Origin: Cyanophora paradoxa CCMP329
Lineage: Eukaryota > Plantae > Glaucophyta
DNA: 64,000 bases
Assembly (NCBI GenBank): GCA_004431415.1
Contig: QPMI01000044.1
Location: forward strand, 186,001-250,000
Direction of reading: 5' to 3'
Below, in pieces: positions 1-64,000 of this stretch. Every line of letters begins with the position of its first letter. Within the stretch, counting starts at the first letter, position 1. A program made the translations under genes and the position numbers. The notes below the pieces were generated by a model. It did no database searches and was not told where the DNA came from. It saw only the letters and a list, made by a program, of their open reading frames with translations.

Positions 1-13575
<13,575 letters not shown>

Positions 13576-30109: not shown

Positions 30110-30850
30110 CTAGGATTCGGGTGAGGATGAGGCTGCGCCAGTGGGCGCAGCACCGGCTGCTGCCATCGAAGGGCGAGTTGGGGTCCGTGAGCGCGTCTTC
30201 TTGGCCCGGACCAGGGCGTCTGCCAGGGCACAGACAATTACACCGCAGCTGAAGCGGTCCCGTTGTTCGGGGATGGGGTACCTGGTGGCCGATGCAAGCG
30301 GCCAGGCGGTGGGGTCGTCTGAGGGGAGGTTGCGTTCCCGGCGCTCGAGCTGGAGCCAGCGGAGAATCGGGGCCAGCTTCTCTCGAGCCGACTCTGCGTT
30401 TGGCAGGTTGTAGGCATCATAGAGTTCGGCTCGACGGTCACGTACGTGGATCGCAGCGAAGGTCCAGTGGCCCGGTGAGTGGATCGGGAAGAGCAGAACA
30501 TCGAAGTCGAACGGGCTGACCCCGCGGGCTACCAGCTTGTTGTGAAGGCGCTGGGGGCCTCGGCCTGGCGCGGAGAGGTTAGGGTACTCAAGCGAGTCAA
30601 AGATTAGTGGACGGCGGGCCAGGGCAGGGAGTTGGGCGAGGAGGGCGAGGTAGAAGACAACGGTCTCGTCGTCTAACCAGGTCTCACCATTGAGCCGACT
30701 GAGAGATCTCCTCGTGACGTTGATGCTGCCCGAGGTACCGAGCAGCGGCGAGGAGATCTGTCGGAGTACTTCCTGCGCAGGCTTTAGCGGGCCGGGTCGG
30801 GTCTGTGCCCACGCTAGGCGGACCTCTTCGGACGGCGGCAGGGGGGCCAC
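30110..30850 (-). CDS. Ulp1/SENP-like (peptidase C48) cysteine protease domain carried by the LINE
   Basis: LSRLNGETWLDDETVVFY, LLFPIHSPGHW (His), ELYDAY (Asp), IPEQRDRFSCG (Gln, Cys). Same frame as the upstream CCHC ORF, separated by one TGA at 30926-30928. Confidence 0.88.
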   Translation of the reverse strand: MAPLPPSEEVRLAWAQTRPGPLKPAQEVLRQISSPLLGTSGSINVTRRSLSRLNGETWLDDETVVFYLALLAQLPALARRPLIFDSLEYPNLSAPGRGPQRLHNKLVARGVSPFDFDVLLFPIHSPGHWTFAAIHVRDRRAELYDAYNLPNAESAREKLAPILRWLQLERRERNLPSDDPTAWPLASATRYPIPEQRDRFSCGVIVCALADALVRAKKTRSRTPTRPSMAAAGAAPTGAASSSPES

Positions 30851-30925
30851 GGGCTGGGCTGCGGGCGGGTCGGGGCCGCGGGCAAGGGTGAGTGCCGGGG
30901 CTCCGGCGGGTGAGGCGCTGGGGGC

Positions 30926-36900: not shown

Positions 36901-38287
36901 CCGACTCTGGCCGGCCCCTGCGAGAGAACTTTTGGGTCTTGCGTGCGGGCGTGTACATGCCGAAGTCCGCGGACTGGCCGATCTCCTTGACTCGATCGAG
37001 CGCCCCGTCGAGCGCGGCGCTGAGGCGGGTCAGGCGCTGCTGCGGCGGCGCGGCGGCGTCCCGCTCGATTTCGTCGAGGATTGCTGCCACGCATTCGGCG
37101 CCGGGGCTGGTCCGGCTCAGGCTGGCCTCCAGGAGCTCCTTGAACCGAACTTTCGTCAGAGCGGCTTGCTTTCCGTACTGGAACCTAGGCGGGCGCTGGG
37201 GGGCGGGCGGCGGGCCGGACGAGAACTGGAGGCCGAGTCCGCGCCTGTCGTACTCGGCGAGTACCGGGAAGTGGTCGGACTCGTAGGGCGCGTGGCGGGG
37301 GGATACCTGAACTGCCCGGAGTCCGGCCCCGGCTGCCGTGGACTGGAGAATGTAGTCGAGCCGAGCAGCTGTCCGCAGGTGGCCCGTCGCAGTGATCCCT
37401 CGCGGCTCAGGCCCAGGTTCGTCCGGCCCGCGCTGTTTGTCGGGGAAGATGAAGGTGATCTGATCGTCCGTGCCCGCCAGCTTCGCAGCGTCGCGCAGGT
37501 TCCAGGCGCTCTCGCTGAGAAGCTCTCTCCACCAGCGATGCTCCGGTTCGTGTGAGCTGGCGTAGCGCGCGTTGCGGATCCGGCCGGTCGCCGGGCAGAC
37601 ACAGCTGTTGAAGTCACCGAGCAGGAACAGGTGCGCCTTGTGTCGGGCCGCCCAGTCGGCGAGGATGTTGTTTCGCATGTACTCGATGATCCGGGCGCTC
37701 TCCGTGTTCGCTGAGGTGCGGCTTTCTCCCGGCGGCAGGTACACGCTCGCTACGAAGACCTGCACGTTGTCCGCGAAGCGCAGCTCGCACCCGACGACTC
37801 GCCCCGGCATTGAGTAGGTGCGGAAGCAGTGCTTCGCCATGTCCGCGGACAGCAGCAGCGCAACGCCTGACCCGCGCGCAGACGGCTCCTTGGGGTCGTT
37901 CTTCTTCTTCTTCTTCTTTTTCTTCATCGGCTCGGCGCGGCGGGGCGCGCTAGGGTGGACCGAGGTCAGCATGACGCCGGCGTCGATGGCCTGCCTCATC
38001 GCTCGGGCTGCCGCGGCGGTACAGTTAAGTGATTGGACGCCCATGACGCTGATCCCCCAGTCCTTCATGTACTTTTGCAGGTGGCCGACGTGGTTCACGC
38101 TCGAGCACGACCGTGCGTTCCAGGTGGCGATCCGCCAGGCCTGCTTAGCGTCGAATTGGCGCTTCAGCGTGCGCGGCCGCGCGCCGAGCTTTGCGTGGGT
38201 GAAGAGGTCCGTCGGGAAGAGGTCAATTATACGGGGCGCGGCCCGGCCCTGTTGCGCCCCCCCCGCCGTGTTCACGTTATTGTTCAT
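30926..38287 (-). CDS. LINE ORF2 polyprotein: AP endonuclease - reverse transcriptase - RNase H - CCHC zinc knuckle; three 1-nt frame breaks at G/C homopolymers
   Basis: APE: IATWNAR, SVYLP, LLGDFN, RLDYIL, SDHFPV. RT: RPITL, LDIRRAYDSV, GLPQG, YADD, FKFLGVW. RNase H: ATDAS, NNKGELLAV, KTDS, KVKAH. Zinc knuckle: CVRPGC...ETHDHAFGLC. Frame breaks at ~35320, ~32875 and ~32313. Confidence 0.9.
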
Positions 38288-39550
38288 TGTCCCCTCAGTA
38301 TGTCCCTCTCGCTCGGCGGGCGTTTGGCTAGGAGGGGAGTACGCGGGAGGCCATGCATTGCGACTAGATCTAGACAGGGACCTAGATCTACTGAGCCTGC
38401 AGCTTTCTGAGAAGCTATTGACTGCTGCTCGGGGCACACGACGAAGAATCCTGCCTCTGTCTTGCCAGAAAAGACTGTGCACTGCGACGCGGGCGCGGCT
38501 ATCGATGCCCCGAAGCTGACACGCCCGCGCGCCGTCTCCATCGTCCATTGCTGCGTCGCGTGTTGGCGGTGCACTGCGGCTAAGGGAGGACGCCGCGACA
38601 CGCGCACCCCGACGTTCGCGGTCGGGCGGCCTAGAGGCTTCATCCTGGAGCCGGCATCCGAGCGCGCCGCGTTCTGCGATGGTCGGCGATGAGCGCGAGG
38701 AAACGATCTTTGGTGAGGAGTCGCGTGCGGCACCCGTTGCTCAGCGATCGAGGGCCTTTCGGGTTCCTGTGATCTGGACTGGCGGGACCGTTCGAGGGCC
38801 TGCGGTGGTTGGGAGCAGATCAGACTTGCTGTGTACAGGCGGGAGAACTGCGCGTTCGTGCTCACGTTGTTAGGCAAGCCACCGGCTTCGGCGCGCGATC
38901 GCTTCGCCGGCGTGCGAGCCACCGGCTGCTGCTGATCTGCTTTACGCTTGCCCTGTGGGTCCGGCGGCGGAGAACGTGGGTCGCCGCGCCACTCGGACCC
39001 GCCTTCCCTTCCCGAAGACATCGCGTCGTCCCGCATGGCCACGAGTGCTTGGAAGGGGTTGGCGTGCGTGAACGCCAGTGCCGGGCGTGCAGAGCTAGAG
39101 CTGCTCGCGTACGGAAGGGGCCGAGAGTGTGATCTATACCCCCCCTTCGTTCGCCGTGGTCGTCCCGCGGCGTCTCTAGCGCGGCTCGGCATGCGCCTAC
39201 TAGTCCAGGCGATTCTACAAGAGCCCCAGAGACGCTTGGAAGCGACTCCGAGGTTTCGGCGCCAAGTGACCGTTGGCGCTGATGACGTGCGCACGCGCGT
39301 GACCTGTGCGGCGCGGCGCGGGCACAGGTTAGCTAGCGCACGGGATGGTGATATCGATCCAACATGTAGTCGGGCACGCGAAGAGGGCGAGCGATTCAGT
39401 CCAGAGGTTCGGGCGAGCATGTCCGGCAGGCGATTTGGGCAAGAGGCCGTGTCCTGAGCGAGCACGCCGCTCGACTGCAGGCTTAAGGCACGTGAGACAT
39501 CCGAGGATGCTCTGAGGTTCATGGGAGGGCCGTGCGGGCTGTCTGCAGCA
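38284..39550 (-). CDS. LINE ORF1, 5'-truncated (low complexity, NPFQAL motif); stop overlaps the ORF2 start (ATGA)
   Basis: The ORF ends CAA TGA at 38284-38286, overlapping the ATG of MNNNVN at 38287. Sequence above 39550 is a duplicated ORF2 piece. Confidence 0.55.
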
Positions 39551-47034: not shown

Positions 47035-47634
47035 CACAGCTCGCGAAAAAAAGTCGGTCCCCACAACTCGGTTTGTATGACAGGGGGGGGGGGCAAGTCG
47101 ACTTGGAAAATCCCTACGCCAGTCAATTAAACCTTTTCATATATATGGCATATATATGCATTCTTATAGAGCTTATTTCTTTCTATCAGTAGTTTTAACG
47201 AGATCGAGGAGAAATGCCGGTCGCTGGCACAGAGGAGAAGTTCAACACACAGCACGCCTCTTGACACCAGCGCCCACATCAGCATTGCGTAGGCCCGAGG
47301 ATCGAAGACAGCCAGGCAGTATAGTTTGGATGCGTCCGGGCGTACTGTGGCCTAGCGCGCCTTCGTTCTGCCGCAGAGCGGCCGACGCACGACGCCCGCA
47401 GCTGCAGCGAGCACGACGCACTCATGATCAGCTACGGCTCGTGGTGCGCTCTTGGTGCGAAGTGCGTGGTGCGGTCCCGGATAACGCCCTGCGCCCGGGC
47501 CCGTTGCGCCCCTGTCGCTGACAAACACGCAGGCTGACACTCCCGTAGTAGCCACTGCATGCACCTGTAGTAGCTACTGCACCTGTAGTAGCCACCATGC
47601 GGCTCTAGATCTGCGGTCCGCGCGTCCGAGCCGG

Positions 47635-48748
47635 GGCCGACGCGTGGCGGCGTGTCTCGGTGCTCGAGCAGGGCGCGACGGACGCGGGCAACGCCGGGGC
47701 GCTGCGGACGACTGTGCGCAGGCCTGCGGCTTCGGGCGCGACGGGACGAGCCCTGGCGGGCGGCGGAGGCCAGGCCGACGCGCGGCGGCGGGTCTCGGTG
47801 CGCGAGCAGGGGCCGCGGGCGACGCCGGGGCGCAGCTGACGCCGGGGCACAGGCCTGCGGCTTCGGGAGCGGCGGGGCGGGCCACGGCGGGCGGCGGAGG
47901 CCAGGCCGACGCGCGGCGGCGGGTCTCGGTGCGCGAGCAGGGGCCGCGGGCGACGCCGGGGCGCTGCGGACGACGGGGCGCAGGCCTGCGGCTTCGGGGG
48001 CGGCGGGGCGGGCCCTGGCGGGCGGCGGAGGCCAGGCCGACGCGCGGCAGCGGGTCTCGGTGCGCGAGCAGGGGCCGCGGGCGGCGCCGGGGCGCAGCTG
48101 ACGACGGGGCGCAGGCCTGCGGCTTCGGGGGCGGCGGGGCGGGCCCTGGCGGGCGGCGGAGGCCAGGCCGACGCGCGGCGGCGGGTCTCGGTGCGCGAGC
48201 AGGGGCCGCGGGCGACGCCGGGGCGCTGCGGACGACGGGGCGCAGGCCTGCGGCTTCGGGGCGGCGGGGCGGGCCCTGGCGGGCGGCGGAGGCCAGGCCG
48301 ACGCGCGGCGGCGGGTCTCGGTGCGCGAGCAGGGCCGCGGGCGACGCCGGGGCGCTGCGGACGACGGGGCGCAGGCCTGCGGCTTCGGGGGCGGCGGGGC
48401 GGGCCACGGCGGGCGGCGGAGGCCAGGCCGACGCGCGGCGGCGGGTCTCGGTGCGCGAGCAGGGGCCGCGGGCGACGCCGGGGCGCAGCTGACGCCGGGG
48501 CACAGGCCTGCGGCTTCGGGAGCGGCGGGGCGGGCCACGGCGGGCGGCGGAGGCCAGGCCGACGCGCGGCGGCGGGTCTCGGTGCGCGAGCAGGGGCCGC
48601 GGGCGACGCCGGGGCGCTGCGGACGACGGGGCGCAGGCCTGCGGCTTCGGGGCGGCGGGGCGGGCCCCGGCGGGCGGCGGAGACCAGGCCGACGCGCGGC
48701 GGCGGGTCTCGGGGCGCGAGCAGGGCCGCGGGCGGCGCCGGGGCGCCT
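47635..48748. repeat. GC-rich 130/131-bp tandem repeat, ~8.5 copies
   Basis: ggtctcgg anchor at 47791, 47922, 48053, 48184, 48314, 48444, 48575 and 48705. Confidence 0.95.
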
Positions 48749-49389
48749 TCTTCTCAGGGCCTCTCCGTCCCGCCTGCTCTCTCTGTTCAACGCTCCGACG
48801 GTAGAGCGCCAGTAGCTCGCCAGCGTTCTGAGATCTTGATAGTGAGTTCGTAATTCTCGAGAAACCCGCCGGCGCCCCGCCTGCGCCGTCTGGGCCGGCG
48901 AGCGCTTTGTTAAGCATGTATGAAGCTGTTAATGCATCTAAATGATGTATATCTCGCGTCCCAGGCGCTAGATGCGACCGGGCGGGCGAGAATCGTCCTG
49001 GGGCCAGGTGGGGCCGCAGATTGCAGCGGATCTTGAATGCCGGTCCAGGCTTTAATCGGCGGCCTTCGGTACCACCACCACCGTCTTCAGCACCCTCGAA
49101 AACCCCCGGGGGCGTGAAATCGCCGCTACTGAGTGAGTCGATGCTTCAATAAGGCATCATGAGCAGGTCGGGGAGGCATCTTGAAACTTGAAAACTGAAA
49201 AGTTCCAGAGAGGGTCCTACGAGTAAAGTTCAAAACATCGGTCCGGCCCAAAAACACTTCGGATCACCCTGGATCTTATAAATACATGTGATAATGATTC
49301 TGGCTTGAAGAGCGGCCAGCTGAGGCCAGCCAGTCGCCCAGGAACTCACTAGCTCACTGACTGTGAGCAGGCGATCTCCGCTGAGGATG

Positions 49390-49835: not shown

Positions 49836-50321
49836 AGGTGCCACCCACCCACTGGAGCAGGTGCCGCTGGCGGCGGGGGTGCGTGCCGCCGCCCGTACGC
49901 GAGCTCTGCGCGTGCTCTAGATGTGCCTCATGGCCCTAGACGTCTCAACCCGCATCGCCCCGCCGTTGCAGCCATGCCATCTGGAACCGCGGCCGCATGA
50001 CATGCTTAAGCTTGATTGCACACGAGCGCGCGTCTGCCTGGGCGCGGTGGGACACGAAGCGGGTCTGAGCGAAAGAAGCATGCCTCCGCGGCGTGCGTCC
50101 CGGTGCCTGCGGCAGGCGCCGGCGGATCCGATCAGGCCTATAGCTAGGGCGCCGGCGCGGAGTGTGCGAACGCGGAGCTCGCGGGCGCGGCAGCGTGGCG
50201 CTTCGCCACGCACCTATTCGTGATGTATAGCTTAGCTATGAGCGGTCCTGCGCCATCTTGGCGAACCGGCTCTCGTCGGGCCGCGGGCTGCGGCTGTAGT
50301 CAGCGCGCGCGGGTCGGGGGC

Positions 50322-50747
50322 AAAAAATGAGATAGTGGGGGTTCCAGCCCACCCACCTCTTCACCACCCTCACTCCTCCAAACCACCCCAACCCACCCAC
50401 TCCAACGCCTTCCAACACACATTCTCTTCCATCCCTTCGTTACGTCTACCACCACAACCTCTCCAAACCAACCATCCAGCAACCGCTAGGTAGTATCTAA
50501 CGTCTAGTCCGATCGATTTTGCAAAAGATATAGCAGTGATTTTAGGCGGACCCCCAAAGCGCCGGTCTCGGAATAATCTTCAACATCATTTAGACGTTAA
50601 TTGTGTGTATTTCGAATCTAAAAAACAAAGAGGTTTCAAGGGTTATGCTACACGTAATTACTATATCATCGGAATCTAATTACATACTCGAGTTCAGGTT
50701 CTAGCTAGACGCTAATTATTCCCACCGATGACGTAGTCCAAGTTTAG
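50322..50747 (+). repeat. Left terminal inverted repeat of the virus
   Basis: Reverse complement of 61342-61768; starts AAAAAATGAGATAGTGGGGG. Confidence 0.95.
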
Positions 50748-51348
50748 TGAAACCACTTAACATTGGTTTGTATTCGATCGACGGCCCGACAGGATCAGCG
50801 CTGCTAGAGGCGATGCGCAAGATCGATGTGTTTGCTACAGGTAATTCGCTAGCATTCTCATCCACCTCGGGGATTGCGACGATCGTCTTAGCAGGAACAG
50901 CAGATGATGGAGGAGAAAGCTTTTTATCAATTTTGGTCTTAGCAATCGGTTCGTTTAAAATCTTGTTTTCCATTTTAGTCTCAACCGCTATACCAGCAAT
51001 AAGATCACCAGCACGCTTCTTTGAAATTGTTTTCAACCCAGTCACTGTTTTAATGAAATATCTGCTACGATTACCAGTCTCTGATACATACAGCGGACCA
51101 TCGTCAGTATCCTTCAGTTTACTAGTTTTGCTTTTCTTTGTCCGCGAATTTTGGATCTTATCTAGAATAGCGTTTTCGTCGGCAGTAAGAGCAAAATCGA
51201 TAGACGCACCCTCACCACCAGCAGTCCGACGAACTAAAGGATAGGATTCAGTATCACCGCTCAAAAATTCAATATTATTCTTTTTATTGGGTGAGTTTGT
51301 AAGTTTTCTAGAAGCCGAAGGCAAGTAGCCACTTGTGCTACGCACCAT
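50716..51348 (-). CDS. Viral hypothetical protein, 210 aa, Lys/Ser/Thr-rich; stop lies inside the TIR
   Basis: ATG at 51348 (MVRSTSGY...) just downstream of the penton stop; no recognised domain. Confidence 0.65.
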   Translation of the reverse strand: MVRSTSGYLPSASRKLTNSPNKKNNIEFLSGDTESYPLVRRTAGGEGASIDFALTADENAILDKIQNSRTKKSKTSKLKDTDDGPLYVSETGNRSRYFIKTVTGLKTISKKRAGDLIAGIAVETKMENKILNEPIAKTKIDKKLSPPSSAVPAKTIVAIPEVDENASELPVANTSILRIASSSADPVGPSIEYKPMLSGFTKLGLRHRWE

Positions 51349-51418
51349 TTGTTTTAAATAAGGAACAGAAAAAAGTCGACAGACAAGCTGCCTCGGCTGC
51401 GCATTCGCGAAAGTGAAT

Positions 51419-52294
51419 TTAAGCAAAACTGCGATCAAACGGATGAAACTCACTATCTGTGTTTCTGATTGACGAGCGAAGTGATGCCTTTGTGTATGAA
51501 GAATCTTCAATTTCGAACTCGATAACGAATGAGAATTCAGTGTTAATAGCTGCAGTAAATCCATTAAAATAACGTATTGACACATCAAGTTGTTCTAACT
51601 CAGAATTATGATCGACGGAAACAGGAACACGTTCATCAGATGTATATTTGATTAGCTCTCCAAATTTCGCATCGATATGAATCTTTGCCAACGATGTGTT
51701 TGTCCAGTTATTTATTGTGTGAATCGAACCACGAATCTGATCGATATGTAGGAAGAGATAAGTATGATAAAGAAGATCAACAGGTATATCGCCAACGATA
51801 GCAAACGCATAATCAACAGCATCAACTGTGATTGGAGTATCTAGCTGTTCTGCAGATTCTGTAACAGCCTTTGTGAAGCCGAGCAGATTTGCGAGTTCAA
51901 GAGTTGAAAACGTTAGAGTAAACTCCGATTCACACAAGATGGTGATTTTCATTGACACATCATCAAAAACTGTTAAGAACTTTCGCTGGTAAGTACTCCC
52001 CAAATAACTGTATTGTTGTGTTTTCAAAAGAACATTCATATAATTCGTAAGAGATGTTGGAGTATATGATCCAGCTCGAAATAGGTTCGTTCTGGTTTTA
52101 ATGACGTTGCTAGGATCGAGCGTAATGGTTGTTATTGAAGCATCAGCAGCTAGATTATACATATTGTGAAAAAGTTCTAGCGATTCAATTCTAGCCGACT
52201 TCACGTTTGCTAACGCCCGAGGCAGATTAATTTTGAAATTCGAGGACGTGCCTTCGAACCGATCTCTAGAATCAACATTTACGCGGAGTTTCAT
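51419..52294 (-). CDS. Minor capsid protein (penton, single jelly-roll), 291 aa
   Basis: N-terminal VNVDSRDR...SNFKINLPRALANVKSARIESLE...MYNL and C-terminal LDVSIRYFNG...EFSFVIEFEI fit the penton pattern; adjacent to MCP. Confidence 0.8.
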   Translation of the reverse strand: MKLRVNVDSRDRFEGTSSNFKINLPRALANVKSARIESLELFHNMYNLAADASITTITLDPSNVIKTRTNLFRAGSYTPTSLTNYMNVLLKTQQYSYLGSTYQRKFLTVFDDVSMKITILCESEFTLTFSTLELANLLGFTKAVTESAEQLDTPITVDAVDYAFAIVGDIPVDLLYHTYLFLHIDQIRGSIHTINNWTNTSLAKIHIDAKFGELIKYTSDERVPVSVDHNSELEQLDVSIRYFNGFTAAINTEFSFVIEFEIEDSSYTKASLRSSIRNTDSEFHPFDRSFA

Positions 52295-52338
52295 CTTTAC
52301 AACAATATACGTGAAAATATTCTGTAATATAATATCAA

Positions 52339-53568
52339 ATGGCGCAAGCAGGAACTACTCTGAAAGAGCTCCTAACAACCAAAGGATCGAACGAGCTTTA
52401 TCTATCGCCAGGTCTAACTGTCGGTGTTAGCCCAAAGTTTAAGCCTTTCCTTGAGACGATCCGTCCGCGAGGCAACTCATACGGATTCGCACAGACTGCT
52501 GCTTTCGACCTTCCGCGCAAGCAACTTCTAAATGGCGTCTCCCTATATTTTAAGGTAACAGTCGCTGGTGGAGCTGCCGCTTCGGTTCTTCCTAATGGTG
52601 CTGGTGCATTTATTGAAAACGTTCGCTTTGTTCATGGATCTTTCAAAATGGTAATTCCTGGTGATTGGCTTACAGTGAACGCGCTAATTGATAATAGTGT
52701 TGCATCCGCCCAAGCATTTGCTAGCAGCTATGGCTTTGGAAAAGATGCAGCTCTCGAGATTCTTGATGCTAGCCGAGAGTACGTGCTGAAGATCCCATCA
52801 CAGCTTTGGGACAATTCGTACTTCCCTCTGTTAGCACTTGCAGATATGCCAACCGTCGAGATTGACTTCCGTTCGGCTGGTGTGATTGGAACTGTTGCTG
52901 ATGCTGTCGCGACACTAACGGATTGCGCCCTGGTTTGTCAATTCGTGAATATCCCTAGCGAAGAGGCAGAGTCTATGCTTAAATCTGCGAATGAGTCTGG
53001 CGGTATTCGAATTCCCTTCACGGAGATCATTTCGAAGCGTTCACGCCAGCTTAAAACGGACGACGCAGGAAACGCTGTCGAAATATCCCTTGCTAACGTT
53101 AGCGGACTTGTGCACGCGATCCTGATGACTGTGCGTAATGCGAATCACCTTGGCACTAGTAACCACAATTCATTTGCCGGTAACGGTAACGCTTTGAAGA
53201 TTGATTCTTTTGAGATCATGCACAATAATCGTACTCTCGACATAAGCAATAAACCTATCTCTGGATTTGTTTCGAGCTGCTATCATATCCCAACTCAATA
53301 TCGTGGTGCAACAACTGGTAATTCAGCCCTTGGTTTCGAGGATGGAAACGTCTATGGTATTGTGCTTTCGAAATCTGGCAAAGACTCCCTCCACAACGCT
53401 GTCCTCGGCTACACAGACTTCTTCAACTCAAGCAGCAGCTACTGCTCCCTCACTGTCACCGGATGTACAAACACCGCACCAGCTGTAGTCGATTTTCACG
53501 TCCTGCGCCACAACGTTCTCGTAATTAATTCATATCAAATGTCGACTCTAAAAGTAAGTAACTTCTAA
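52339..53568 (+). CDS. Major capsid protein (double jelly-roll), 409 aa
   Basis: YGFAQTAAFDLPRKQLLNGVSLYFKV, FIENVRF, YFPLLAL...VEIDF and C-terminal HNVLVI; size and position between penton and ATPase. Confidence 0.8.
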   Translation: MAQAGTTLKELLTTKGSNELYLSPGLTVGVSPKFKPFLETIRPRGNSYGFAQTAAFDLPRKQLLNGVSLYFKVTVAGGAAASVLPNGAGAFIENVRFVHGSFKMVIPGDWLTVNALIDNSVASAQAFASSYGFGKDAALEILDASREYVLKIPSQLWDNSYFPLLALADMPTVEIDFRSAGVIGTVADAVATLTDCALVCQFVNIPSEEAESMLKSANESGGIRIPFTEIISKRSRQLKTDDAGNAVEISLANVSGLVHAILMTVRNANHLGTSNHNSFAGNGNALKIDSFEIMHNNRTLDISNKPISGFVSSCYHIPTQYRGATTGNSALGFEDGNVYGIVLSKSGKDSLHNAVLGYTDFFNSSSSYCSLTVTGCTNTAPAVVDFHVLRHNVLVINSYQMSTLKVSNF

Positions 53569-53569
53569 A

Positions 53570-54286
53570 ATGGATATCAAATTGTTTGATCCAGCAGAAG
53601 TAAAACTTCCTAAACGGTTCTTGTTTGTCGGCCCCACCAACTCGGGCAAAAGCACCTACGTAAAACACGTATTAAATGCTGTAGCAAATCAGCTAGACGA
53701 TATTTACGTCTTCAGCACAACGGCATTTACAGAACAGTGGGACGATACCACTCGCAAGAGCAATATTTATGAAGAATGGGATACAGTTTTGGTTGAAGAA
53801 CTTTTAGAACGTCAAAAAGAAAGACGACGCAAGAAAGATGATCGAAAAATAGCAATTGTTTTAGATGACTTGCTTGATAATGACCTAGTAAACGTCCACA
53901 GTGACCGATTAATGCAAAAGCTTTTTACTAGCGGAAGACATTACAATATATCGCTCTTTATCACGACACAACGTCTATGTGGCATTAGTCCGACGATTCG
54001 GCGAAATTGCGAATATGTATGCTTTTCGTCGATTCTATCGAATATTAAAGAGTTCGATTGCGTCTTCTCCGAATACAACGCCGGAGCGAGTCGAGCAGTT
54101 TTAATGCGTCTTTTCCTTGAATGGGGTCATTCGTATCAGGTTTTGATATTTGAAGCCGCGACCGTGGACCGCGTCTACTCTGTTGATAAATCTTCTGGAG
54201 ATTTTTCGGCTCTATTGCGCTTTGTGCACGCAAGAAAGCGGCCCGGTCAAAAGCTGGTAACCAATCCTGTCGCAGCAACCAGCTAG
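53570..54286 (+). CDS. A32-like (FtsK-HerA) genome packaging ATPase, 238 aa
   Basis: Walker A GPTNSGKST, Walker B IAIVLDD, GRHYNISLFITTQ, IRRN. Confidence 0.93.
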   Translation: MDIKLFDPAEVKLPKRFLFVGPTNSGKSTYVKHVLNAVANQLDDIYVFSTTAFTEQWDDTTRKSNIYEEWDTVLVEELLERQKERRRKKDDRKIAIVLDDLLDNDLVNVHSDRLMQKLFTSGRHYNISLFITTQRLCGISPTIRRNCEYVCFSSILSNIKEFDCVFSEYNAGASRAVLMRLFLEWGHSYQVLIFEAATVDRVYSVDKSSGDFSALLRFVHARKRPGQKLVTNPVAATS

Positions 54287-54462
54287 TATATTCTGCTTTC
54301 GCTGAAGCAATCCACAAATAGGAGGCTCCTTTGTAAATGCCGAAGCTGATGCAGTGACTTGGGGTGAGTTGACTCCTGCCTGGCCAAAATTCTTCTAGAT
54401 TTAACTCTTCCTCTGTCGTTTCGAGTTCGAGTTCCATTAAAAAGATAAAGGGTGTTATTCCT

Positions 54463-54711
54463 TCAATTAAACCGTGATTTCGATGTTTGATCTTTATAAG
54501 CATCTTCGAATGAATCATAATAACCGATTATCTTCTTGCATCCATTGATTTTGGTTTCTGCTTTCCATTTATCGGTTCGTTTGTCAAAGGAAACACGGAC
54601 ATAGTGGTTGGTGGGTCGGTGGATTCTCCTCCGGCAATGTTTCAGTAGAAGATATTCAATGTGTTGCTGGATTGCAAAGGCAACGTATATTGGAAGGTTG
54701 ATATCGGTCAT
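54463..54711 (-). CDS. Small AP2-domain-like DNA-binding protein, 82 aa
   Basis: YVRVSFDKRTDKWKAETKINGCKKIIGYYDSFEDAY fits the AP2 consensus (Y.GV......KW.A.I..NGK...LG.FD..E.A). Confidence 0.65.
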   Translation of the reverse strand: MTDINLPIYVAFAIQQHIEYLLLKHCRRRIHRPTNHYVRVSFDKRTDKWKAETKINGCKKIIGYYDSFEDAYKDQTSKSRFN

Positions 54712-54744
54712 CTCTTTTTCGTTACTTTTACATATTGCAATATA

Positions 54745-54765
54745 TTTAAGGCATATTCACGCGAT
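54745..54765 (-). promoter_or_regulatory. 21-bp motif, inverted copy (partner at 55733-55753)
   Basis: tttaaggcatattcacgcgat is the reverse complement of atcgcgtgaatatgccttaaa; it lies 33 nt upstream of the AP2-like ORF. Confidence 0.6.
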
Positions 54766-54766
54766 T

Positions 54767-55714
54767 CTACCTTCGAATTCTCTTTGCGTAATATCCAGCG
54801 GGTTTGGCGCCTGCTCTGAGCAATGGTTCAGCAGCAATTTCGAGTTTTTTTAACTCACGATCCTTCCGGTTTTGACCCGCATACGTTTTCGTTTCAACGA
54901 GACCCTCTCTCCGAAGCTGACGATCTTGCTTCGATCTAGCAGTCGCTCTTTCAATCTTAGACTGGTCAGGTAGTTCTTGTGGCGCACGAATCTCGGATGG
55001 TTTAACACGTCTAGAAATTTCCACACCATGCTTTGTAATTAACCTAACACGGTTCTTATCAACGCCAGCAACAACGTAGGTCTCTTTGCTTGGTTTCGCC
55101 AGACCCTTTGCAAACACGCTTGGCTTAGGCTCAAGTATCTTCACCTCCGAACCTGGTTTAGGCATATTTGTGTTCTCTCGTTCAATATCGTTCTGTCGCT
55201 GTCGAACTTGATGTAGCTGCTCGGCAACCTGTGTTTTTTCACGCATCCACGTTGGTGATCGCTCTTCACCAAATGCATTGTGTGCTGTTTCATTGTACGC
55301 CTTCAAAATCGCAGGCAAGCGGGAGAGGAAATGTGGTGATCCGCGTGCTTCTGTGTCAGCTCGGATAAGTGCTCGCAATGTCCTAGCGAACCTGTCAATA
55401 ATTCCAAGTTTGTTACCTTTAGAAATGTGGTCATCTTTGGCAACATCAGTGTGCATTTTCAACGAGTTCTCTTCGGCCATTGCCCGAATTGCTGCTGTGT
55501 TAAAACCGTTGTCGGCGGAGAAACCCCAGATCCCTGGTAGCTCCGCGATCATTTTTGGAAGTTGTTTGAATGTTTCTATTTTTCGCACGATAGCGAAACG
55601 GGTTGCAATCTCGACCGCTGCAAACAGACGATACCTACCAATAAATAATACATCAATTTGCCAGACACCCGGTGGAGCTGTTATCGTGTACATTCTTCTA
55701 ATTGTCACACACAT
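54767..55714 (-). CDS. Retroviral-type (rve) integrase; start at ATG 55714 or 55693
   Basis: WQID, AVEIATRF, SADNG, LGIIDRFARTLR, AYNETAH...SP. Confidence 0.88.
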   Translation of the reverse strand: MCVTIRRMYTITAPPGVWQIDVLFIGRYRLFAAVEIATRFAIVRKIETFKQLPKMIAELPGIWGFSADNGFNTAAIRAMAEENSLKMHTDVAKDDHISKGNKLGIIDRFARTLRALIRADTEARGSPHFLSRLPAILKAYNETAHNAFGEERSPTWMREKTQVAEQLHQVRQRQNDIERENTNMPKPGSEVKILEPKPSVFAKGLAKPSKETYVVAGVDKNRVRLITKHGVEISRRVKPSEIRAPQELPDQSKIERATARSKQDRQLRREGLVETKTYAGQNRKDRELKKLEIAAEPLLRAGAKPAGYYAKRIRR

Positions 55715-55732
55715 AAAAAGTTTTTGGTGGAT

Positions 55733-55753
55733 ATCGCGTGAATATGCCTTAAA
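55733..55753 (+). promoter_or_regulatory. 21-bp motif ATCGCGTGAATATGCCTTAAA
   Basis: Perfect inverted partner of 54745-54765; lies 38 nt upstream of the AT-hook ORF. Confidence 0.6.
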
Positions 55754-55791
55754 AAGATTGTGATTATGATTAATAATAAAGTGATATTGTA

Positions 55792-56082
55792 ATGGAGGCG
55801 GAAAACTGTTTGGCACGCAAGCGTGGTCGTCCTCCAAAGTCTATGTCTCCGGAAGTAATAGAAGAGATGAAGAAGAATCGATCAGCAGCGGTAAAAGCTC
55901 GTTATCATTCAGATGAGGAATTTCGTAAGCGCAAACTACAAGCGACGTATGAATATCAGGAAAGAAATATTGAACGTAAAAGGGAACAATGTCGTAATTA
56001 TAGACGTCGGCAAAGACAATTGCTTCTAACTTTATTGGAAAAGTTTGGTGCTCAATCGGTTGAGGTAGTTTCAGCAGCCTAA
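55792..56082 (+). CDS. Small basic protein with AT-hook and charged helix, 96 aa
   Basis: RKRGRPPK followed by an R/K/E-rich helical stretch. Confidence 0.75.
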   Translation: MEAENCLARKRGRPPKSMSPEVIEEMKKNRSAAVKARYHSDEEFRKRKLQATYEYQERNIERKREQCRNYRRRQRQLLLTLLEKFGAQSVEVVSAA

Positions 56083-56112
56083 TGTTTGGAGGTTCGCTGC
56101 AAACTTCTTTTT

Positions 56113-59100
56113 TCAAATACGAGTGCGACAATGTCCAAGCGCCATTGTTTCTACGTCATTATCGCAAAGCCAGCGTTTTGTATCTAGCGAATGTAGTGCC
56201 TGTTTTGAGGTTTCTTGCACATAAACACGATGTTTCTTTGAGCGCATACCTCGAATTCCATTCACTTCACATGATAAGTATAGTTTCTGTCCATCTACAA
56301 CTTTACCAAGAACACAATCAATATATCTTTCCCGTGTAAGCTGGTCGGCAAAGCTTTTAGAAATCCCCTTGCATCGACGCTCTTGCTTACCACTGTCGAT
56401 CTGATACCAGTAACTCTTTGGTCGGTTCGCGATGAATTCTACCATTTGCTTACCATTGCACTCATCTTTGAAATTGCCAAGGGCTGTCGATTCTTTCTTC
56501 ATGGTGGCAATTTCTTCGTCCGACATTCCTGCAAAGAATCGATGTGACTCCGGATATTTGCTAACATCTAAAAGGTGACTTATATTTTTCAGATCAGCGT
56601 ACAAATCATCTGTCTCAATTCTAAGGATTAGCGAGTCAGTATCCGTTGCAAGCAATTTAACACGCGGACCCCAGAGCGGTTTTAGTTGCTCGTAATACAT
56701 TTTAAACATGTGTAGTTTTGACATTTCCAAAACACTGAATCCACTGTATATCGGTTTGTTTAATTTGACTTGTGAACGCCGTTTAGAGATAAATACAAGA
56801 TCCTCATCATATTTGACAATTTGCTTCAATAAATTTGGTTGTGCGGCAATTTTTGACAGTCTGACACTATCAGTCACAAGCTCCGCATCGCAATGCTTTC
56901 TCACGTTTTCCATATTTTTGCCGTATAATGCATTAGTCTTGAGTTTGAATAGATCTCGCACATGATCAAAGGTTGCGGCCTGACGCATTTCGGCATTTTT
57001 TTCCACATACGGTTTCATCCAAGCAGTCTGCTTGTACGTAATAACACGATGAGTTTTACTCACCACAAAACCTTGACTTTTGTAAAATTTGAGTAGTCTC
57101 CCATCAACAACATATTTCTTCAATGGAAGCAGACTTGGAATAAGCTTTCGCGTCTTCATCTGAATGCAATCCTTTTTAATCATATCCTGTTGTGATCTAG
57201 ATAGCATCGTTGGATCTACAATCATTGATACTGGCGCAATCGGGTAATCATTAAATTTCTCGTGAAGCTCATCTGGAATGTAAGCATCAATTTCAAGCGT
57301 TGCTCCTATATCACCGTCATAATCGAAACCATCATGGTCAAAGGTTTCTGGATCAACCCATTTAAAATCTCCAATCGGATGTTTCTCTAACATAGCATAT
57401 CCATACAACGAATTTGCATCTATATAGTACAGATATACTGATGGTTTGGATGGATCATAATCAACCATGTCCTTATTGTTCGCTTTTGCATATCGATTTG
57501 ACACCATTGAAATACCACCACGAATACCTGTCTCGAAGAATCTGAACATATCCTCTTGACCCTCATGCAACAGCTGTAATTGCCCACCTGTATATTTTAG
57601 AGCAGCATCCCAACTAAAGCCTGGTAGTGACATGTAATATGCAGGATCTATGCCATCTGTAGCGCGAGATGTTTCCCGATACGCTTGAAACACATCTGAT
57701 AGTAACGTTATATCAAGTTTCATATAAGCAATCGTGTAATCTAACATTGTCTTACATTTCAGCTTTTTCCAAACCTTCTGTGCGTGCTCATAATCTTCAA
57801 GCTTGCACTTTTCGTTTTTCAAGTCATTGTGAAACGCCTCTATCGGAGGTAGCTTACGGTCTGCAAGCCGCTGCCAGGAATTTACGTAGCTGTAGGGATA
57901 GATGCCCTTTCTTGTCATCAAATTAAACGTTTCCGCATCGGGACATAACTCGCGAGTTTGCTTTTTCAGTTCATCTGGAAGCGATGCCGCTAGCTTTTCG
58001 AGCGTTGCTGATAGATGTTGCATGCTGTCGCGGAATACGTAAATGCCGTACTCAATTTGACTCATTTTCTCGGAGTTTTGGAACATCACTTCGAAACGAT
58101 TTGAAAGCGGTGTCTCAGATCTCTCGAATTTGATTTTTTCTTTAACAAGCTGGTTCTTGATAAATCCTGGAACTCGTTTCTCATACTCCTCAGCATTTAT
58201 GCTCAGTTTGTTCATCGTCCATTCCCTCACGCTTTGATTTTGATATGTCTTCTCAAGTCGTGTTCGGACTGATCCAAGTTTTTCAATCAACTTTTTCTTA
58301 AATTCAATATGTGCGGCATGTCTACGAACACTTCCCTTTGCAATTGCGCGGATCAGCAAATGCGAATCAAATCCTCGAGCATTGTGAGCAATCAAGAAAA
58401 CACGTTTTGATTTGAATCTTCTACGGTTGCAGCCAGGACAAGCAGCACCTTTGAAATCACCATTATCATGATCGTGGTCCCAAACCTTTTTGATCTTCTC
58501 GCTGAATTCAACGTTACAGATATAGCAACTAGTAGCTGAATCAAACGTTTGCTTTGCAACATCTGTTTTTATCGCTGGTACCGATGCATTTAGCCCTTTC
58601 TTTAAAGTTGGTTCCATTGAATCTAGCCATTCAACAAACCTCTCCTCACATCTACGTCCGCTATTTACGTGCCAATATTTTGTATCATCATTGCCTGTGA
58701 TCAAACATCCAACAGCAGCTGGTATTTGACATGCAATTTCCTCTGTCTTTCCATTTTTCACAGAGTTCGTAGACATTGCAAGTGTTTCAAAATCATAGGC
58801 TCCAACATATCGTGCCGTTATCGTATTCGCATGGTTCAGGAATTTCAATGTTGAACGGTCGGGTTTTGGAAGCACATCACGGCCATGTTCGTCTCGTTCG
58901 AGGCATCTGTCTTCTTCGATGTGTTTCTGAAGAGCATCATCACCGCGAAATCCTTTTTGACAAGCGAGACAATAGCTGCGTGCGTTCTTGTCAATTCCAG
59001 GACGAGAAAACATTCGACTCACGTTCTTGATCCAAACGAAGTGGCCATAACTACCTTCGCCAGTCACGAATAGCAGAGGAATAGCATCTCGAGCCGCTGA

Positions 59101-61240
59101 AATATAATATGGAGTGATATCTAGCTTTTCATTATCAGCCACATACACGCATAGCTTCAGATTGTTTGCCTCTTCAAACCGACGGAATATCTTTGAATCA
59201 AGCGGGACAGGATAACTGAGCATTGATGTGTTGATCGTACTTAGGTGCTCTCTGTACTTGGCAGCACGTTGAGCATGCCGATCGACTGGGAACTTTGCGG
59301 ATAAAACTGAATACGTAAAACACATATTATCTGGTGCCTCCACGTTTATGACTGCGTTCTTCTTGCTAATCCATGATGGAAGTTCAAATGATGCGCCACC
59401 AACGGCGCGGACATGTTCTAGACTTTGTATGTAAAAATACGTCCACGTTTCTAACTCCCAGCTGTCATTCTCCTGTTCAGCTCTTCCATCGATCTCAACA
59501 CATCTGTCACGCAGCTCAACTTCAATGTTTGCACCGGGGAGGATACGGTAGAATTGATCTTCACTGATTTCATCTGTTTTGAAGCGGTTAGTAAAACCTT
59601 CTGTGCCATTCTGCCTATGCTTAAAAATACCTTTTGCATATACCTTTATAGATAGCCCCATTCGTGTTTCATTCGCCGCAGTCAATCGCTCAGTTATGAA
59701 ACGCTCAAATTTTGCTTTGAAATCTGGGGTGTTCGCCATGTACGACGCGAGCGATGTAACTCTTAGTCTGTTCGGCCTGATGATCGCAGCGCTTTCGAGT
59801 GCGTATATTCCATCTAGTGCCGTCTCGCGTGAACCATCTCCAGCAAGTTCCTCATTTGGCTGTCCAGGGAGTTCATTGAAAAGTGCTACCAGTTCAGCTT
59901 GGTTTTCAGCGATGATTATCTGCACAGTTCGCTCTGAGGCACGTCTCGTTTGTCCGACTACAGCAGCGAGCATTGAAAGCACATCAACAGTTCGTTGCAG
60001 CGTCACAAGTCGAGTTCGAGATCCTGGTGATGAGATTCGGAGTAATTTGTTTCGATATAGTCCATTGCGCTGAGCGGGATGCGCTAAGCAGTTGGCTAGG
60101 CCCAGAGGCGCCCCAAGCAGAGAGGGACAGGCCCGTACGGCACCGTAGGGCGGCGGCAAGCGGGTGCCATTACGTACACAGCAGGCGCAGAGCCAGCGTA
60201 AGACAGAGAGAACAAGAGAACAAGGACGTCGACAGACAGCAAGCGAGCGCCGCGCAGGGCAAGCGAGGGCCCAGGGCTAAAATAAGCGGGCCAGTTGGCA
60301 ACAACGTGGCACCAGGAATAGCAGGCTACAAAGGGTACAAGGCAAGGCAAGCTGCCGGCTTAGAGCCGACGACCAGGGCTAGCTGGGAGTCGGAAAGTGG
60401 GCGGCACACGCTTCCCGCTACAAAAAGCCGTCCTCGGCGCTACGAGCTAAAGGCTGAACTAAAGCTGCGTAGGCGAGGCTGAACGGACTACGAGCCAAAA
60501 GCCGGCTACCGTCCCTGCACAGAAAGCCGTCCTCGGCGCCACAGCGGGCGGGCCAGAGGGGCAAATTAAAATCCATCAGGCCGTCGGCACCAGTATGAGG
60601 AACTGGGCCCAACAAGGGAAGTTGGGTGAGGGACCCACGACCTGACGCCAGAGCGCGCGGAGCGCCGCCAGCCAACCGGGGGCAAACCCTCTAAATCCCG
60701 CCGGAAGGGAAAACGAGTGCTAGCGCTAGCACTAAGCTCGAATTCGAAGCCGGCGCCGCGCCACACGAGCCGCCGGGCCGCGGCGGCGCCGGGTCGAAAG
60801 TTCCACAACAGCGGGATGCGCTAAGCAGTTGGCTAGGCCCAGAGGCGCCCCAAGCAGAGAGGGACAGGCCCGTACGGCACCGTAGGGCGGCGGCAAGCGG
60901 GTGCCATTACGTACACAGCAGGCGCAGAGCCAGCGTAAGACAGAGAGAACAAGAGAACAAGGACGTCGACAGACAGCAAGCGAGCGCCGCGCAGGGCAAG
61001 CGAGGGCCCAGGGCTAAAATAAGCGGGCCAGTTGGCAACAACGTGGCACCAGGAATAGCAGGCTACAAAGGGTACAAGGCAAGGCAAGCTGCCGGCTTAG
61101 AGCCGACGACCAGGGCTAGCTGGGAGTCGGAAAGTGGGCGGCACACCATGAATACGTCTACGCTCATACAAAGTTTGTGCTAGACCTACGATCTGTTGTT
61201 TTAATAACGCTATCTGACGACGACGAGCAAATTGATTCAT
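56113..61240 (-). pseudogene. Protein-primed family B DNA polymerase (pPolB), 1347 aa when reconstructed; interrupted near codon 32 by the LTR element
   Basis: Exo: YDFET, HNARGFDSH, YMKLD. Pol: DANSLYG, KLKTNALYGK, DTDS. Zinc finger CLAC...HIEEDRC; endonuclease VII-like CYIC...DHDH...ACPGCN. Removing 60066-61149 joins MNQFARRRQ...RRIH in frame to GLYRNKLL. Confidence 0.93.
60066..61145. mobile_element. TRIM-like non-autonomous LTR retrotransposon (1080 bp), TG...CA ends, 4-bp TSD CCAT
   Basis: Direct repeats 60073-60408 and 60810-61145; CCAT at 60062-65 and 61146-49; GC-rich like the host; ~400-bp non-coding interior. Confidence 0.88.
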
Positions 61241-61341
61241 TTTGAAAGTGTCGCTAGAAATAAATTTCGGTTGATCAGCGCGATCTCTTATATCATTTTA
61301 TATTGTTGCTGAAACCTCTAAGACATAGTTATAACCTGAAC

Positions 61342-61768
61342 CTAAACTTGGACTACGTCATCGGTGGGAATAATTAGCGTCTAGCTAGAACCTGAACTCG
61401 AGTATGTAATTAGATTCCGATGATATAGTAATTACGTGTAGCATAACCCTTGAAACCTCTTTGTTTTTTAGATTCGAAATACACACAATTAACGTCTAAA
61501 TGATGTTGAAGATTATTCCGAGACCGGCGCTTTGGGGGTCCGCCTAAAATCACTGCTATATCTTTTGCAAAATCGATCGGACTAGACGTTAGATACTACC
61601 TAGCGGTTGCTGGATGGTTGGTTTGGAGAGGTTGTGGTGGTAGACGTAACGAAGGGATGGAAGAGAATGTGTGTTGGAAGGCGTTGGAGTGGGTGGGTTG
61701 GGGTGGTTTGGAGGAGTGAGGGTGGTGAAGAGGTGGGTGGGCTGGAACCCCCACTATCTCATTTTTTT
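61342..61768 (-). repeat. Right terminal inverted repeat of the virus
   Basis: Reverse complement of 50322-50747 (terminal run 7 T versus 6 A). Confidence 0.95.
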
Positions 61769-62293
61769 GGGGGCGAGCCCAGATGCGAGAAAGATCACAC
61801 CTGGCGCACTGTAAGCTTGCTCTGAGACGAACTGGAGCTACTGGAGGTCGCCCGCGCTCGAGCCCGGAACCTTCTCAGATGGGGGGCCCTGCACAAACGC
61901 GACGGCCATTTCGCGCAGCTGACGGAGCGAGGGCTGCCATCAAGCACAGAGCTAGAGTGCTTGACTATCTAAACTTTGTCGGAAGCACTTTGAAAATCGT
62001 CGGGCTAGTTTTCGCGCACGCTTTCCTTGACGGCGATCGAGTTTGACCAGACTCTTGGTTTTCGTCGCGGCGGTGCCCGAAGGCGGCCGTTCCTGCTCCA
62101 TATGCGACCTGGAGGCTAGCTGTGACGCTCTCTGCTGCGTGCCGAAGCTGCGGTGCGTGCTGGTCGCGCGCTTCGCCGAGTCGCGTACGTCTACCCCGGG
62201 TGTTTTAACTTTTGTAGGGGAGAATTATTCGAGTCCCAAGTCGAGTCCCAGCCAAGTCGAATTGCGGGGACCGACTTTTTTTCGCGAGCTGTG

Positions 62294-62670
62294 CGCAGCC
62301 CTGGACATCGATCCTGTATGCATTCGAGATTCTGTTTAAGCGATTTATAAGCTCTGCGCATGCGCCTGGCCACGAGAATCTCGCCCGTCCCCACAACAAT
62401 CTCCTCTCAATTTCCTCAGGGCCTCGAGCTCAACTACAGCTAGCTGATTGGCAGATACTCACCAATTCCCCTTATTCCATAATTATATTCTGTCATGGCA
62501 ACTCCACTCAGGACAACTCCCCCATAATTATATTCCCTCTCACTCCCCCTTATCCTATAATTCCAACTGCAGGAACTCCCCTTATCACATAATTATATTC
62601 TCTTAGAACAAATCCGCTCAGGACAACTCCTCCCATAATTATACTCACTCTCGGCAGCCCTCCCCTACCC
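62294..62670 (+). repeat. Continuation of the third 1.41-kb satellite unit after the CACAG element
   Basis: cgcagccctggacatcgatcctg...gagctcaactacagctagctgattggcag matches 44218-44378 and 45616-45782. Confidence 0.88.
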
Positions 62671-62683
62671 TCAGCTCAGCACT

Positions 62684-63790
62684 GCGCCGTGTCTCCAAAA
62701 AAATACCCGCGAAAAAATCAAAAACAAATCAGAAAACAAACCATTCCCAGTAACCCAATCTTGAATATCAGTAAATCTCAGTAAGCCTCAGTAAGAAACA
62801 TTGAATTAATCGAAGTTATATCATAATCTCGATTAATTATATCTTATCGAAGTTATATCTTTTTTATGCGCCGTGTCTCCAAAACAATTCCCAAGAAAAA
62901 CAAACCATTCACAGTAACCCAATTCCAAATCTCACTAAATCTCAGTAAGCCTCAGTAACAAAAATCGAATTAATCGAAGTTATATCTTAAATCTTATTTA
63001 TCGAAGTTATATCATAATCTCGATTAATTATATTTAATCGAAGTTATATCCTTTTTATCCGCCGTGTCTCCCATGAATAACTAAGTAAGTTTAGTTAAAA
63101 CCTCGAAAGAAAAACCTCTCATTTTTTACTGTATTTTTTGAACGATTTTTTACTGTATTTGTTACACTAGAAACAACAATAGAAACGACAATAAAAACAA
63201 TAGAATTTTAATTGTTTTTGAATCGTATATACGTCAATATATCACTGTAATATATATCATATATATCATAGGAAATCGATTTATAGTCAAACCTATAACA
63301 TATCAATTTGTGTATATGTGATATATATTCATATATGACGTCATGATGATGATGTATATGTATCTGATATATATGACACACCGGCTTATTCGGGAGATCA
63401 TGACGATCACGGCGATGTGTATATTGTCATGATGTATATGTATATATGTGTGACGCAATCTGATTGGTGTGCTACTTGTTTTGTTGTATCCCCCTTCAAC
63501 TTCTCCCCAGGTTTATATCACAGATAACATCTCAGATAATACCTCAGATAATACCTCAGATAATACCTCAGATTATACCTAGCTCAGATAATACCTCAGA
63601 TGATATCTCAGATATTAAATGTAATTTTGTTCGATTCCCATTGGACTATGCCACAGAGTAGTATTTACCTCTCTGAGGTATTTACCTTGAGGTATTTATC
63701 TCTCTGAGGTATTTACCTCGAGGTATTTATCTCGCCGAGGTATTTACTGCGAGGTATTTACCGCGAGATATTTACCTCGAGGTATTTATC
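62684..63790. repeat. AT-rich repeat cluster: ~185-bp degenerate units, 12-bp tcagataatacc array, gaggtattta array
   Basis: gccgtgtctcc anchors near 62686, 62870 and 63061; tcagataatacc repeats at ~63520-63615; gaggtattta repeats at ~63660-63790. Confidence 0.8.
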
Positions 63791-64000
63791 ACACGTCTTC
63801 GGTTTTTTCGATTATCGGCATCTTCAAACGCTTGTATCTCATCACCAGATCATCAAATCGCAACGTTCTGCATAGCGTTTTGAAGCGCTATGAAAGCTCT
63901 ACGCAACTATGCTATTTTCTTAGTATTTCAAGCTACCTTATCATACAATATTCTTCAGAAATCGACCTTTTACACACTGATTGTGGTCATTTCTCGCTGA

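Follow-up and report, generated by a model that had tools for sequence, protein, structure and literature searches.

How small can an integrating, capsid-forming DNA virus of a eukaryote be? The question is raised by a provirus in the glaucophyte alga Cyanophora paradoxa CCMP329, at positions 50322-61768 of a 64,000-nucleotide stretch of contig QPMI01000044.1 (assembly GCA_004431415.1, positions 186,001 to 250,000). This whole stretch is the window referred to below, and all coordinates are counted from its first letter. The provirus spans 11,447 bp and carries genes for a major capsid protein (MCP), a packaging ATPase, a DNA polymerase B of the protein-primed kind (pPolB) and an rve-type integrase. 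We consider it probable that it represents one copy of a compact, multi-copy family of Polinton-like viruses (PLVs) of C. paradoxa, and that this particular copy was disabled by a retroelement remnant lying within it. An earlier note, made from the sequence alone, had described a complete and unusually small PLV without a maturation protease. Its general outline, a very short capsid-encoding dsDNA virus integrated in an algal host between terminal inverted repeats (TIRs) and a target-site duplication (TSD), is supported by the present analysis. That 10.4 kb is the autonomous and modal size of the family is a candidate reading.

Ends, copies and a secondary insertion

The provirus is bounded by a left TIR at 50322-50747 and a right TIR at 61342-61767. 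The arms are 426 nt each and show 100% complementarity, in agreement with the length of about 426 bp noted earlier. The left arm starts with a run of 6 A and contains the 3' end of ORF1, and the right arm is followed by a single extra terminal T at 61768. The 6-bp TSD of the earlier note was also recovered: GGGGGC stands at 50316-50321 and, as a perfect match, at 61769-61774. Subtraction of a 1,084-bp insert gives the same native length as was claimed before, 10,363 bp. Between the TIRs the coding fraction is 94%, the eight intronless ORFs being separated by gaps of 1-176 bp, and the dense packing reported for them is thus real. The GC content of the element is 0.426, compared to 0.652 in the host portion of the window.

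Public contigs were compared with the element at its junctions in three DNA-type runs. In 3/3 runs contigs bridge the 1,084-bp insert, sharing 4 letters at the joint, and hold the insert-free junction of sister copies. Likewise, in 3/3 runs contigs pass over the entire element, sharing 6 letters, the length of the left TSD, and represent an empty site. The depth of the empty site is about 5x host-gene depth, suggesting that these contigs are probably other copies of a host repeat. The flanks of the provirus are themselves high-copy repeats, with a GC-rich tandem array of about 130-bp units at 47600-48900 and AT-rich short tandem arrays at 62460-63800. The stretch, or part of it, is present in 20 of the 24 public runs listed, at least half of it in 19, all under a single organism code.

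Depths are given here as single-contig values relative to the median of eight host-gene contigs in three runs; contig depth is not copy number, and the figures are rough and GC-biased, GC-rich host DNA being under-sequenced. Contigs near-identical to pPolB have depths of 6.5-9.3x the host-gene median, those near-identical to ORF1, the putative penton gene and the ATPase gene 9.3-19.4x, and the end bearing the AP2-like and integrase genes 5-10x. Independent contigs differ at 0-11 positions over 400-790 nt. The junction of the AT-hook gene with pPolB occurs in two versions in run X5, one of them with 57 differences over 446 nt, so the adjacency of these genes is not a one-off. These observations point to a recent multi-copy family. 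The short pieces found over the element in one RNA-like run (depth 2-12, some diverged) have no bearing on expression.

The same data bear on the idea that the locus was put together as a chimera in assembly, or else is a fossil in decay without recent activity. Collapsed repeats can yield false consensus endogenous viral elements (PMC10120064), and this copy does bear a secondary insertion. However, the TIRs are identical, the TSD is perfect, the eight ORFs contain no stops, and the independent contigs agree closely at multi-copy depth. We regard a chimera or fossil as very improbable.

The secondary insertion lies on the minus strand at 60066-61145. It is 1,080 bp long with 63% GC, has TG...CA ends and 337-bp direct repeats, one of which is adjoined by a purine-rich tract, and is flanked by 4-bp duplications, CCAT, at 60062-60065 and 61146-61149. 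Judging by this anatomy, it would be an internally deleted long terminal repeat (LTR) retroelement. The remnant probably splits pPolB in its 5' part, likely disabling this copy, because a further ATG, at 61240, shares its reading frame with the ATG at 59973 across the insert, adding 61 codons upstream without stops. The open frame at 59974-60061 (minus strand) would then be a probable N-terminal coding part of the gene, and the segment at 61146-61240 (minus strand), where ATG 61240 stands in an A-rich context, its probable true 5' start. The earlier description of the ORFs as intact therefore does not hold, the insert lying inside the probable pPolB frame and the integrase being short at its N-terminus. 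The insert belongs to a family of non-autonomous LTR-like elements: loose contig ends at 60066, 60807 and 61145 lead to other insertion sites and to a longer internal part. The family also shows high depth in one RNA-like run.

Capsid genes and previous records of the family

The MCP is encoded on the plus strand at 52339-53568 (409 aa). A structural model built from five sequences (pLDDT 63.7; 30.8 for a single-sequence model) has a double jelly-roll (DJR) fold, and matches the MCPs of iridovirus and Paramecium bursaria chlorella virus 1 (PBCV-1) with a Foldseek E of 1e-19. The superposition on the PBCV-1 protein has Z 30.9 and an rmsd of 2.6 over 339 residues. MCPs of nucleocytoplasmic large DNA viruses (NCLDVs) score Z 24-31, those of virophages (mavirus, 15.9, and Sputnik) Z 15-17, and that of adenovirus Z 12. 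Structure comparison of the predicted model thus confirms the capsid assignment of the earlier note. By sequence the protein is isolated. A word-indexed search scored 0 of 7,995 candidates, and only 4 relatives, at about 26-30% identity, were found among 1.84 billion representatives. One of these, P0122 (27% identity), is itself a C. paradoxa protein, and none is a named Polinton capsid, at a distance where sequence searches are weak. Scans of viral contigs with the MCP, pPolB, the putative penton, the integrase alignment and the ATPase gave no relatives.

The capsid itself has been catalogued before. A near-identical C. paradoxa MCP (QPMI01000594.1) is listed in Table S2 of Bellas et al. 2023 (PMC10120064) and differs from that of the element, by eye, at about 5 positions over some 370 residues. 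Table S4 of the same work gives 366 MCP hits for C. paradoxa in two clusters (272 and 94), and P0122 is listed there as well. Five C. paradoxa loci are drawn in its Dataset S1, and these maps may already show elements of this size. Cyanophora is not mentioned in the main text of this source, and we found in it no genome size, gene set or integrase description for the near-identical capsid. Our literature search, which covered few subscription papers, found no genome description of this family and no paper devoted to C. paradoxa viruses. The earlier suggestion of an undescribed lineage may hold for the genome and fails for the MCP; what seems undescribed is the compact 10.4-kb genome, the isolation of its capsid lineage and its short D-D-D integrase.

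The ATPase, at 53570-54286 on the plus strand (238 aa), is of the A32 packaging type, as labelled before (Pfam Pox_A32, E 1.4e-11). The ORF at 51419-52294 (minus strand, 291 aa) had been called a penton, or minor capsid protein. No search gave a match to it (Pfam, PHROGs, viral-contig scans and others); we presume it to be a penton from its position beside the MCP gene, its size and an N-terminal motif. ORF1, at 50716-51348 on the minus strand, encodes a basic protein of 210 aa (pI 9.6) rich in S, K and T. It has no match in Pfam or PHROGs and no usable match in Atlas, and our guess is an internal virion or DNA-binding protein. The possibility raised earlier, that this ORF folds as a protease, can be dismissed for a cysteine protease, as the protein contains no cysteine; nor does it resemble a Ulp1/adenain protease.

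Polymerase, protease and integrase

The polymerase gene occupies 56113-59973 on the minus strand and encodes 1286 aa from ATG 59973. The predicted protein contains an EndoVII insert (E 1.9e-6), its exonuclease and polymerase motifs are intact, and its best matches, at 38-42% identity, come from metagenomes and animals. Its features fit the pPolB of Polinton group 2, the Alpha type of PMC8502044. Three residues of its vOTU motif (D215, C218 and H311) are invariant in 41/41 aligned homologues, these being the members of the top 60 matches that exceed 1,100 aa. The polymerase label of the earlier note is well founded on all four sets of motifs. A tree was made from the C-terminal 680 residues of 45 sequences, comprising 36 of 120 matches and 8 loci (one of them a helicase) besides the element. 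In it the element sits on a long branch, and none of the 44 others is supported as a close sister.

The vOTU domain modifies what can be said of proteases. There is no Ulp1- or adenain-like ORF: a Pfam scan of 11 ORFs gave no Peptidase match, and the same scan does detect a host Ulp1 domain (Peptidase_C48, E 3.7e-11) at 30110-30925. We considered this domain as a viral protease and rejected it, as it belongs to a LINE-like retroelement 19 kb from the virus. That retroelement lies on the minus strand at 30110-38740 and shows, by eye, endonuclease-, reverse-transcriptase- and RNase H-like frames followed by the Ulp1 domain. The absence of a maturation protease noted earlier is therefore upheld, with the qualification that pPolB, through its vOTU Cys/His pair, gives the element a predicted cysteine protease domain. 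The absence is not news in itself, nor is it the unusual trait it was taken for. PMC4642659 states that a maturation protease is encoded by no PLV, and its absence is a defining trait of the group.

The combination of pPolB, rve integrase and no protease is not novel either. It was described for a PLV integrated in Monoraphidium neglectum, with a group-2 pPolB and an RVE integrase (Yutin et al. 2015, PMC4642659). That virus resembles the present element in its algal host, PLV-type capsid, group-2 pPolB, RVE integrase and lack of a maturation protease. It differs in that its MCP was found as a homologue of that of PgVV, and the PLV genomes described there are 18-28 kb. Neither the word-indexed search nor the search of 1.84 billion representatives gave a sequence link between its MCP and that of the element.

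It might be argued that the element belongs with the Polintons of protists (group 2, Polintoviricetes), its Ulp1 protease having been lost, and not with the PLVs as a member that acquired pPolB and integrase. A pPolB, an rve integrase, TIRs and a 6-bp TSD together make up the definition of a Polinton, and group-2-type polymerases of animals and fungi, with 36-42% identity, are among the pPolB matches. The likeness to group 2 Mavericks/Polintons extends to the OTU-bearing PF03175/EndoVII architecture of the polymerase. Those elements differ in being 15-20 kb long as against 10.4 kb, in having a Ulp1/adenain protease and in showing no detectable capsid similarity to the present element, whose host is a protist. 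Against the Polinton reading, none of the MCP relatives is a Polinton capsid by name, as described above, the integrase relatives come from metagenomes and not from animals, and pPolB has no supported close sister. The MCP fold is nearest to that of NCLDVs, but this is not decisive, since the same pattern has been reported for both Polintons and PLVs (PMC10120064). On balance a Polinton that lost its protease is improbable, and assignment to the PLVs is preferred. Related adintovirus-like sequences have been seen in C. paradoxa (Starrett et al., PMC8502044). Mavirus-type virophages, the endogenous mavirus-like elements (EMALEs), share the pairing of pPolB with rve integrase and the endogenous lifestyle. 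They differ in capsid, the element MCP scoring Z 15.9 to mavirus versus 30.9 to PBCV-1, and the element, unlike them, lacks a protease and has an intact exonuclease domain in pPolB.

The integrase gene is at 54767-55714 on the minus strand (315 aa). Its Pfam rve match (E 0.02) falls below the cut-off, and the label given to it earlier is carried by homologues instead: 18 database sequences and 80 metagenomic loci (L001-L080). The third catalytic residue is D, and in an alignment to a solved retroviral integrase (E 0.35) it falls on the catalytic E. We considered whether the D marks a dead enzyme and rejected this, because 92 of 96 relatives have D there (1 has N and 3 are unmatched), so that it is a trait of the D-D-D family. 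This metagenomic family is widespread, its members usually being found directly behind a pPolB or helicase gene; loci L059 and L060 also hold a Peptidase_S74 fibre-like gene.

Is the 10.4-kb form self-sufficient?

From these genes a most likely life cycle can be proposed. The provirus would be transcribed by the host RNA polymerase or by that of a co-infecting giant virus, the element having no transcription genes of its own. A terminal-protein domain at the N-terminus of pPolB would prime replication at the A-run termini. Such ends suit sliding-back initiation, as in phi29. The vOTU domain would then release the terminal-protein domain, a cleavage that has been proposed for polinton pPolBs (PMC11161782). 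The ATPase would package linear 10.4-kb DNA into a capsid of MCP and putative penton that, like those of other PLVs, would require no proteolytic maturation. The 6-bp duplications would be created by the rve integrase, be it the short form encoded here or one provided in trans by other resident elements. We infer every catalytic step of this cycle from anatomy, and the main doubt concerns autonomy, because the integrase is short by about 50 aa at its N-terminus.

Several observations weigh against a compact, self-sufficient family. In the element 10 residues precede the first conserved integrase motif, as against 55-67 in 55/55 usable relatives (those of the 96 that start with Met and carry this motif), and a search of all six frames with a profile of the N-terminal segment gave no match in the element. 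The 45-55 N-terminal residues of its relatives are thus missing from the integrase, and this places autonomy in doubt. Of the metagenomic loci in which the integrase has a polymerase-like neighbour, 23/23 have that neighbour on the same strand and leading straight into the integrase gene. In the element, the AT-hook gene sits between pPolB and the integrase gene, and may mark a rearrangement. The capsid-side depth is about 2x that of pPolB among near-identical contigs, and the summed depth over the MCP is about 5x that of pPolB at 85% identity. Because of this excess, many relatives should have another polymerase arm or none, and the data point to a capsid side held in common by such elements. 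Both the penton and the terminal-protein domain of pPolB are putative. The upstream start of pPolB is likewise predicted from sequence; the vOTU Cys has a median position of 261 in relatives, and this fits a start at 59973 (position 218) or at 61240 (position 279). Finally, other C. paradoxa PLVs are reported to carry fibre, lectin or discoidin genes (PMC12220804), none of which is present in the element, and longer C. paradoxa relatives therefore probably exist.

A rival reading is that the 10.4-kb form was cut down from a longer Cyanophora PLV and is no longer autonomous. It would have shed accessory genes together with the N-terminus of its integrase, and spread with an integrase borrowed from full-length relatives. 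The short integrase, the broken polymerase-integrase tandem and the capsid-side depth excess all agree with such an origin, as does the AP2-like ORF, which resembles only the tail of an HNH endonuclease. As to size, PLV genomes are described as ranging over 14-40 kb (PMC12220804), a descriptive range below which the 10,363 bp of the element falls, and a recent preprint terms genomes of 15-20 kb highly reduced (10.64898/2026.06.19.733378; it does not name Cyanophora, though its supplements may include this capsid). In line with a derivative, the low tail of cryptophyte families whose medians lie at 19-29 kb includes TIR-bounded PLVs of 6.8-11 kb (Bulzu et al. 2025, PMC12220804). Clusters C2 and C4 of that set, which have these medians, are a further precedent for the gene set of the element: they have rve-INT as well as TSDs and TIRs and are not reported to carry a protease, which was found only in cluster C3 and in virophages. 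Their capsid groups differ from that of the element as far as tested. C. paradoxa elements are treated there only in passing. Helpers would be plentiful, given the 366 C. paradoxa MCP hits (PMC10120064). On the other side, no core module is missing and the catalytic motifs are intact, and the tightly spaced ORFs show no visible gene stumps between them. In addition, the insert is the only large internal skip among the joints listed, although with short contigs a longer relative would appear as loose ends. A reduced derivative is unlikely on this evidence, yet it deserves to be taken seriously, and we prefer the compact PLV family.

A bolder version of the preferred reading, which we find possible but doubtful, is that the family is the smallest self-sufficient family of integrating DJR viruses, with eight genes in 10.4 kb. 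Its capsid lineage would be specific to glaucophytes and its D-D-D integrase active in the absence of the N-terminal domain, and it would be still spreading, its capsid module being swapped among replication arms. If 10.4 kb is a working size, it sets a practical lower bound for an integrating, capsid-forming eukaryotic DNA virus. The corresponding gene set would be capsid, penton, ATPase, polymerase, integrase and three small proteins. The presence of several near-identical copies in a culturable glaucophyte would make particle formation, terminal-protein cleavage by vOTU and the need for a giant virus testable.

Two small genes flank the integrase gene. The first, at 54463-54711 on the minus strand (82 aa), encodes an AP2-like DNA-binding protein. 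The Pfam AP2 match (E 0.028) does not reach the cut-off, and the earlier AP2 label is sustained by matches to the AP2 tails of PHROG HNH endonucleases (E 3.7e-7). The second, at 55792-56082 on the plus strand, encodes a basic, AT-hook-like protein of 96 aa, for which the earlier label finds no significant match (Pfam AT_hook, E 0.05, below the cut-off). Two inverted copies of a 28-bp repeat (21 bp exact) also flank the integrase gene: one on the minus strand at 54738-54765, 27-54 nt upstream of the AP2-like start, and one on the plus strand at 55733-55760, 32-59 nt upstream of the AT-hook start. A search that allowed up to 3 mismatches gave no additional copies. Since both copies point towards a small DNA-binding gene from much the same distance, the repeat is likely a common promoter motif of the two genes. 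We also considered that it might form the edges of an invertible or transposable integrase cassette. This was set aside, as the joints listed include none that changes strand, the lost N-terminus of the integrase does not turn up across the repeat, and the two copies have the same orientation relative to the small gene that each precedes by about 30-55 nt.

Two host genes lie elsewhere in the window. An intron-rich gene at 3000-12000 on the minus strand encodes peptides that by eye are WD40/EML-like, and contigs of an RNA-like run cover it in separate pieces. The other, at 19200-21850 on the plus strand, encodes peptides whose motifs resemble those of a cyclic-nucleotide phosphodiesterase.

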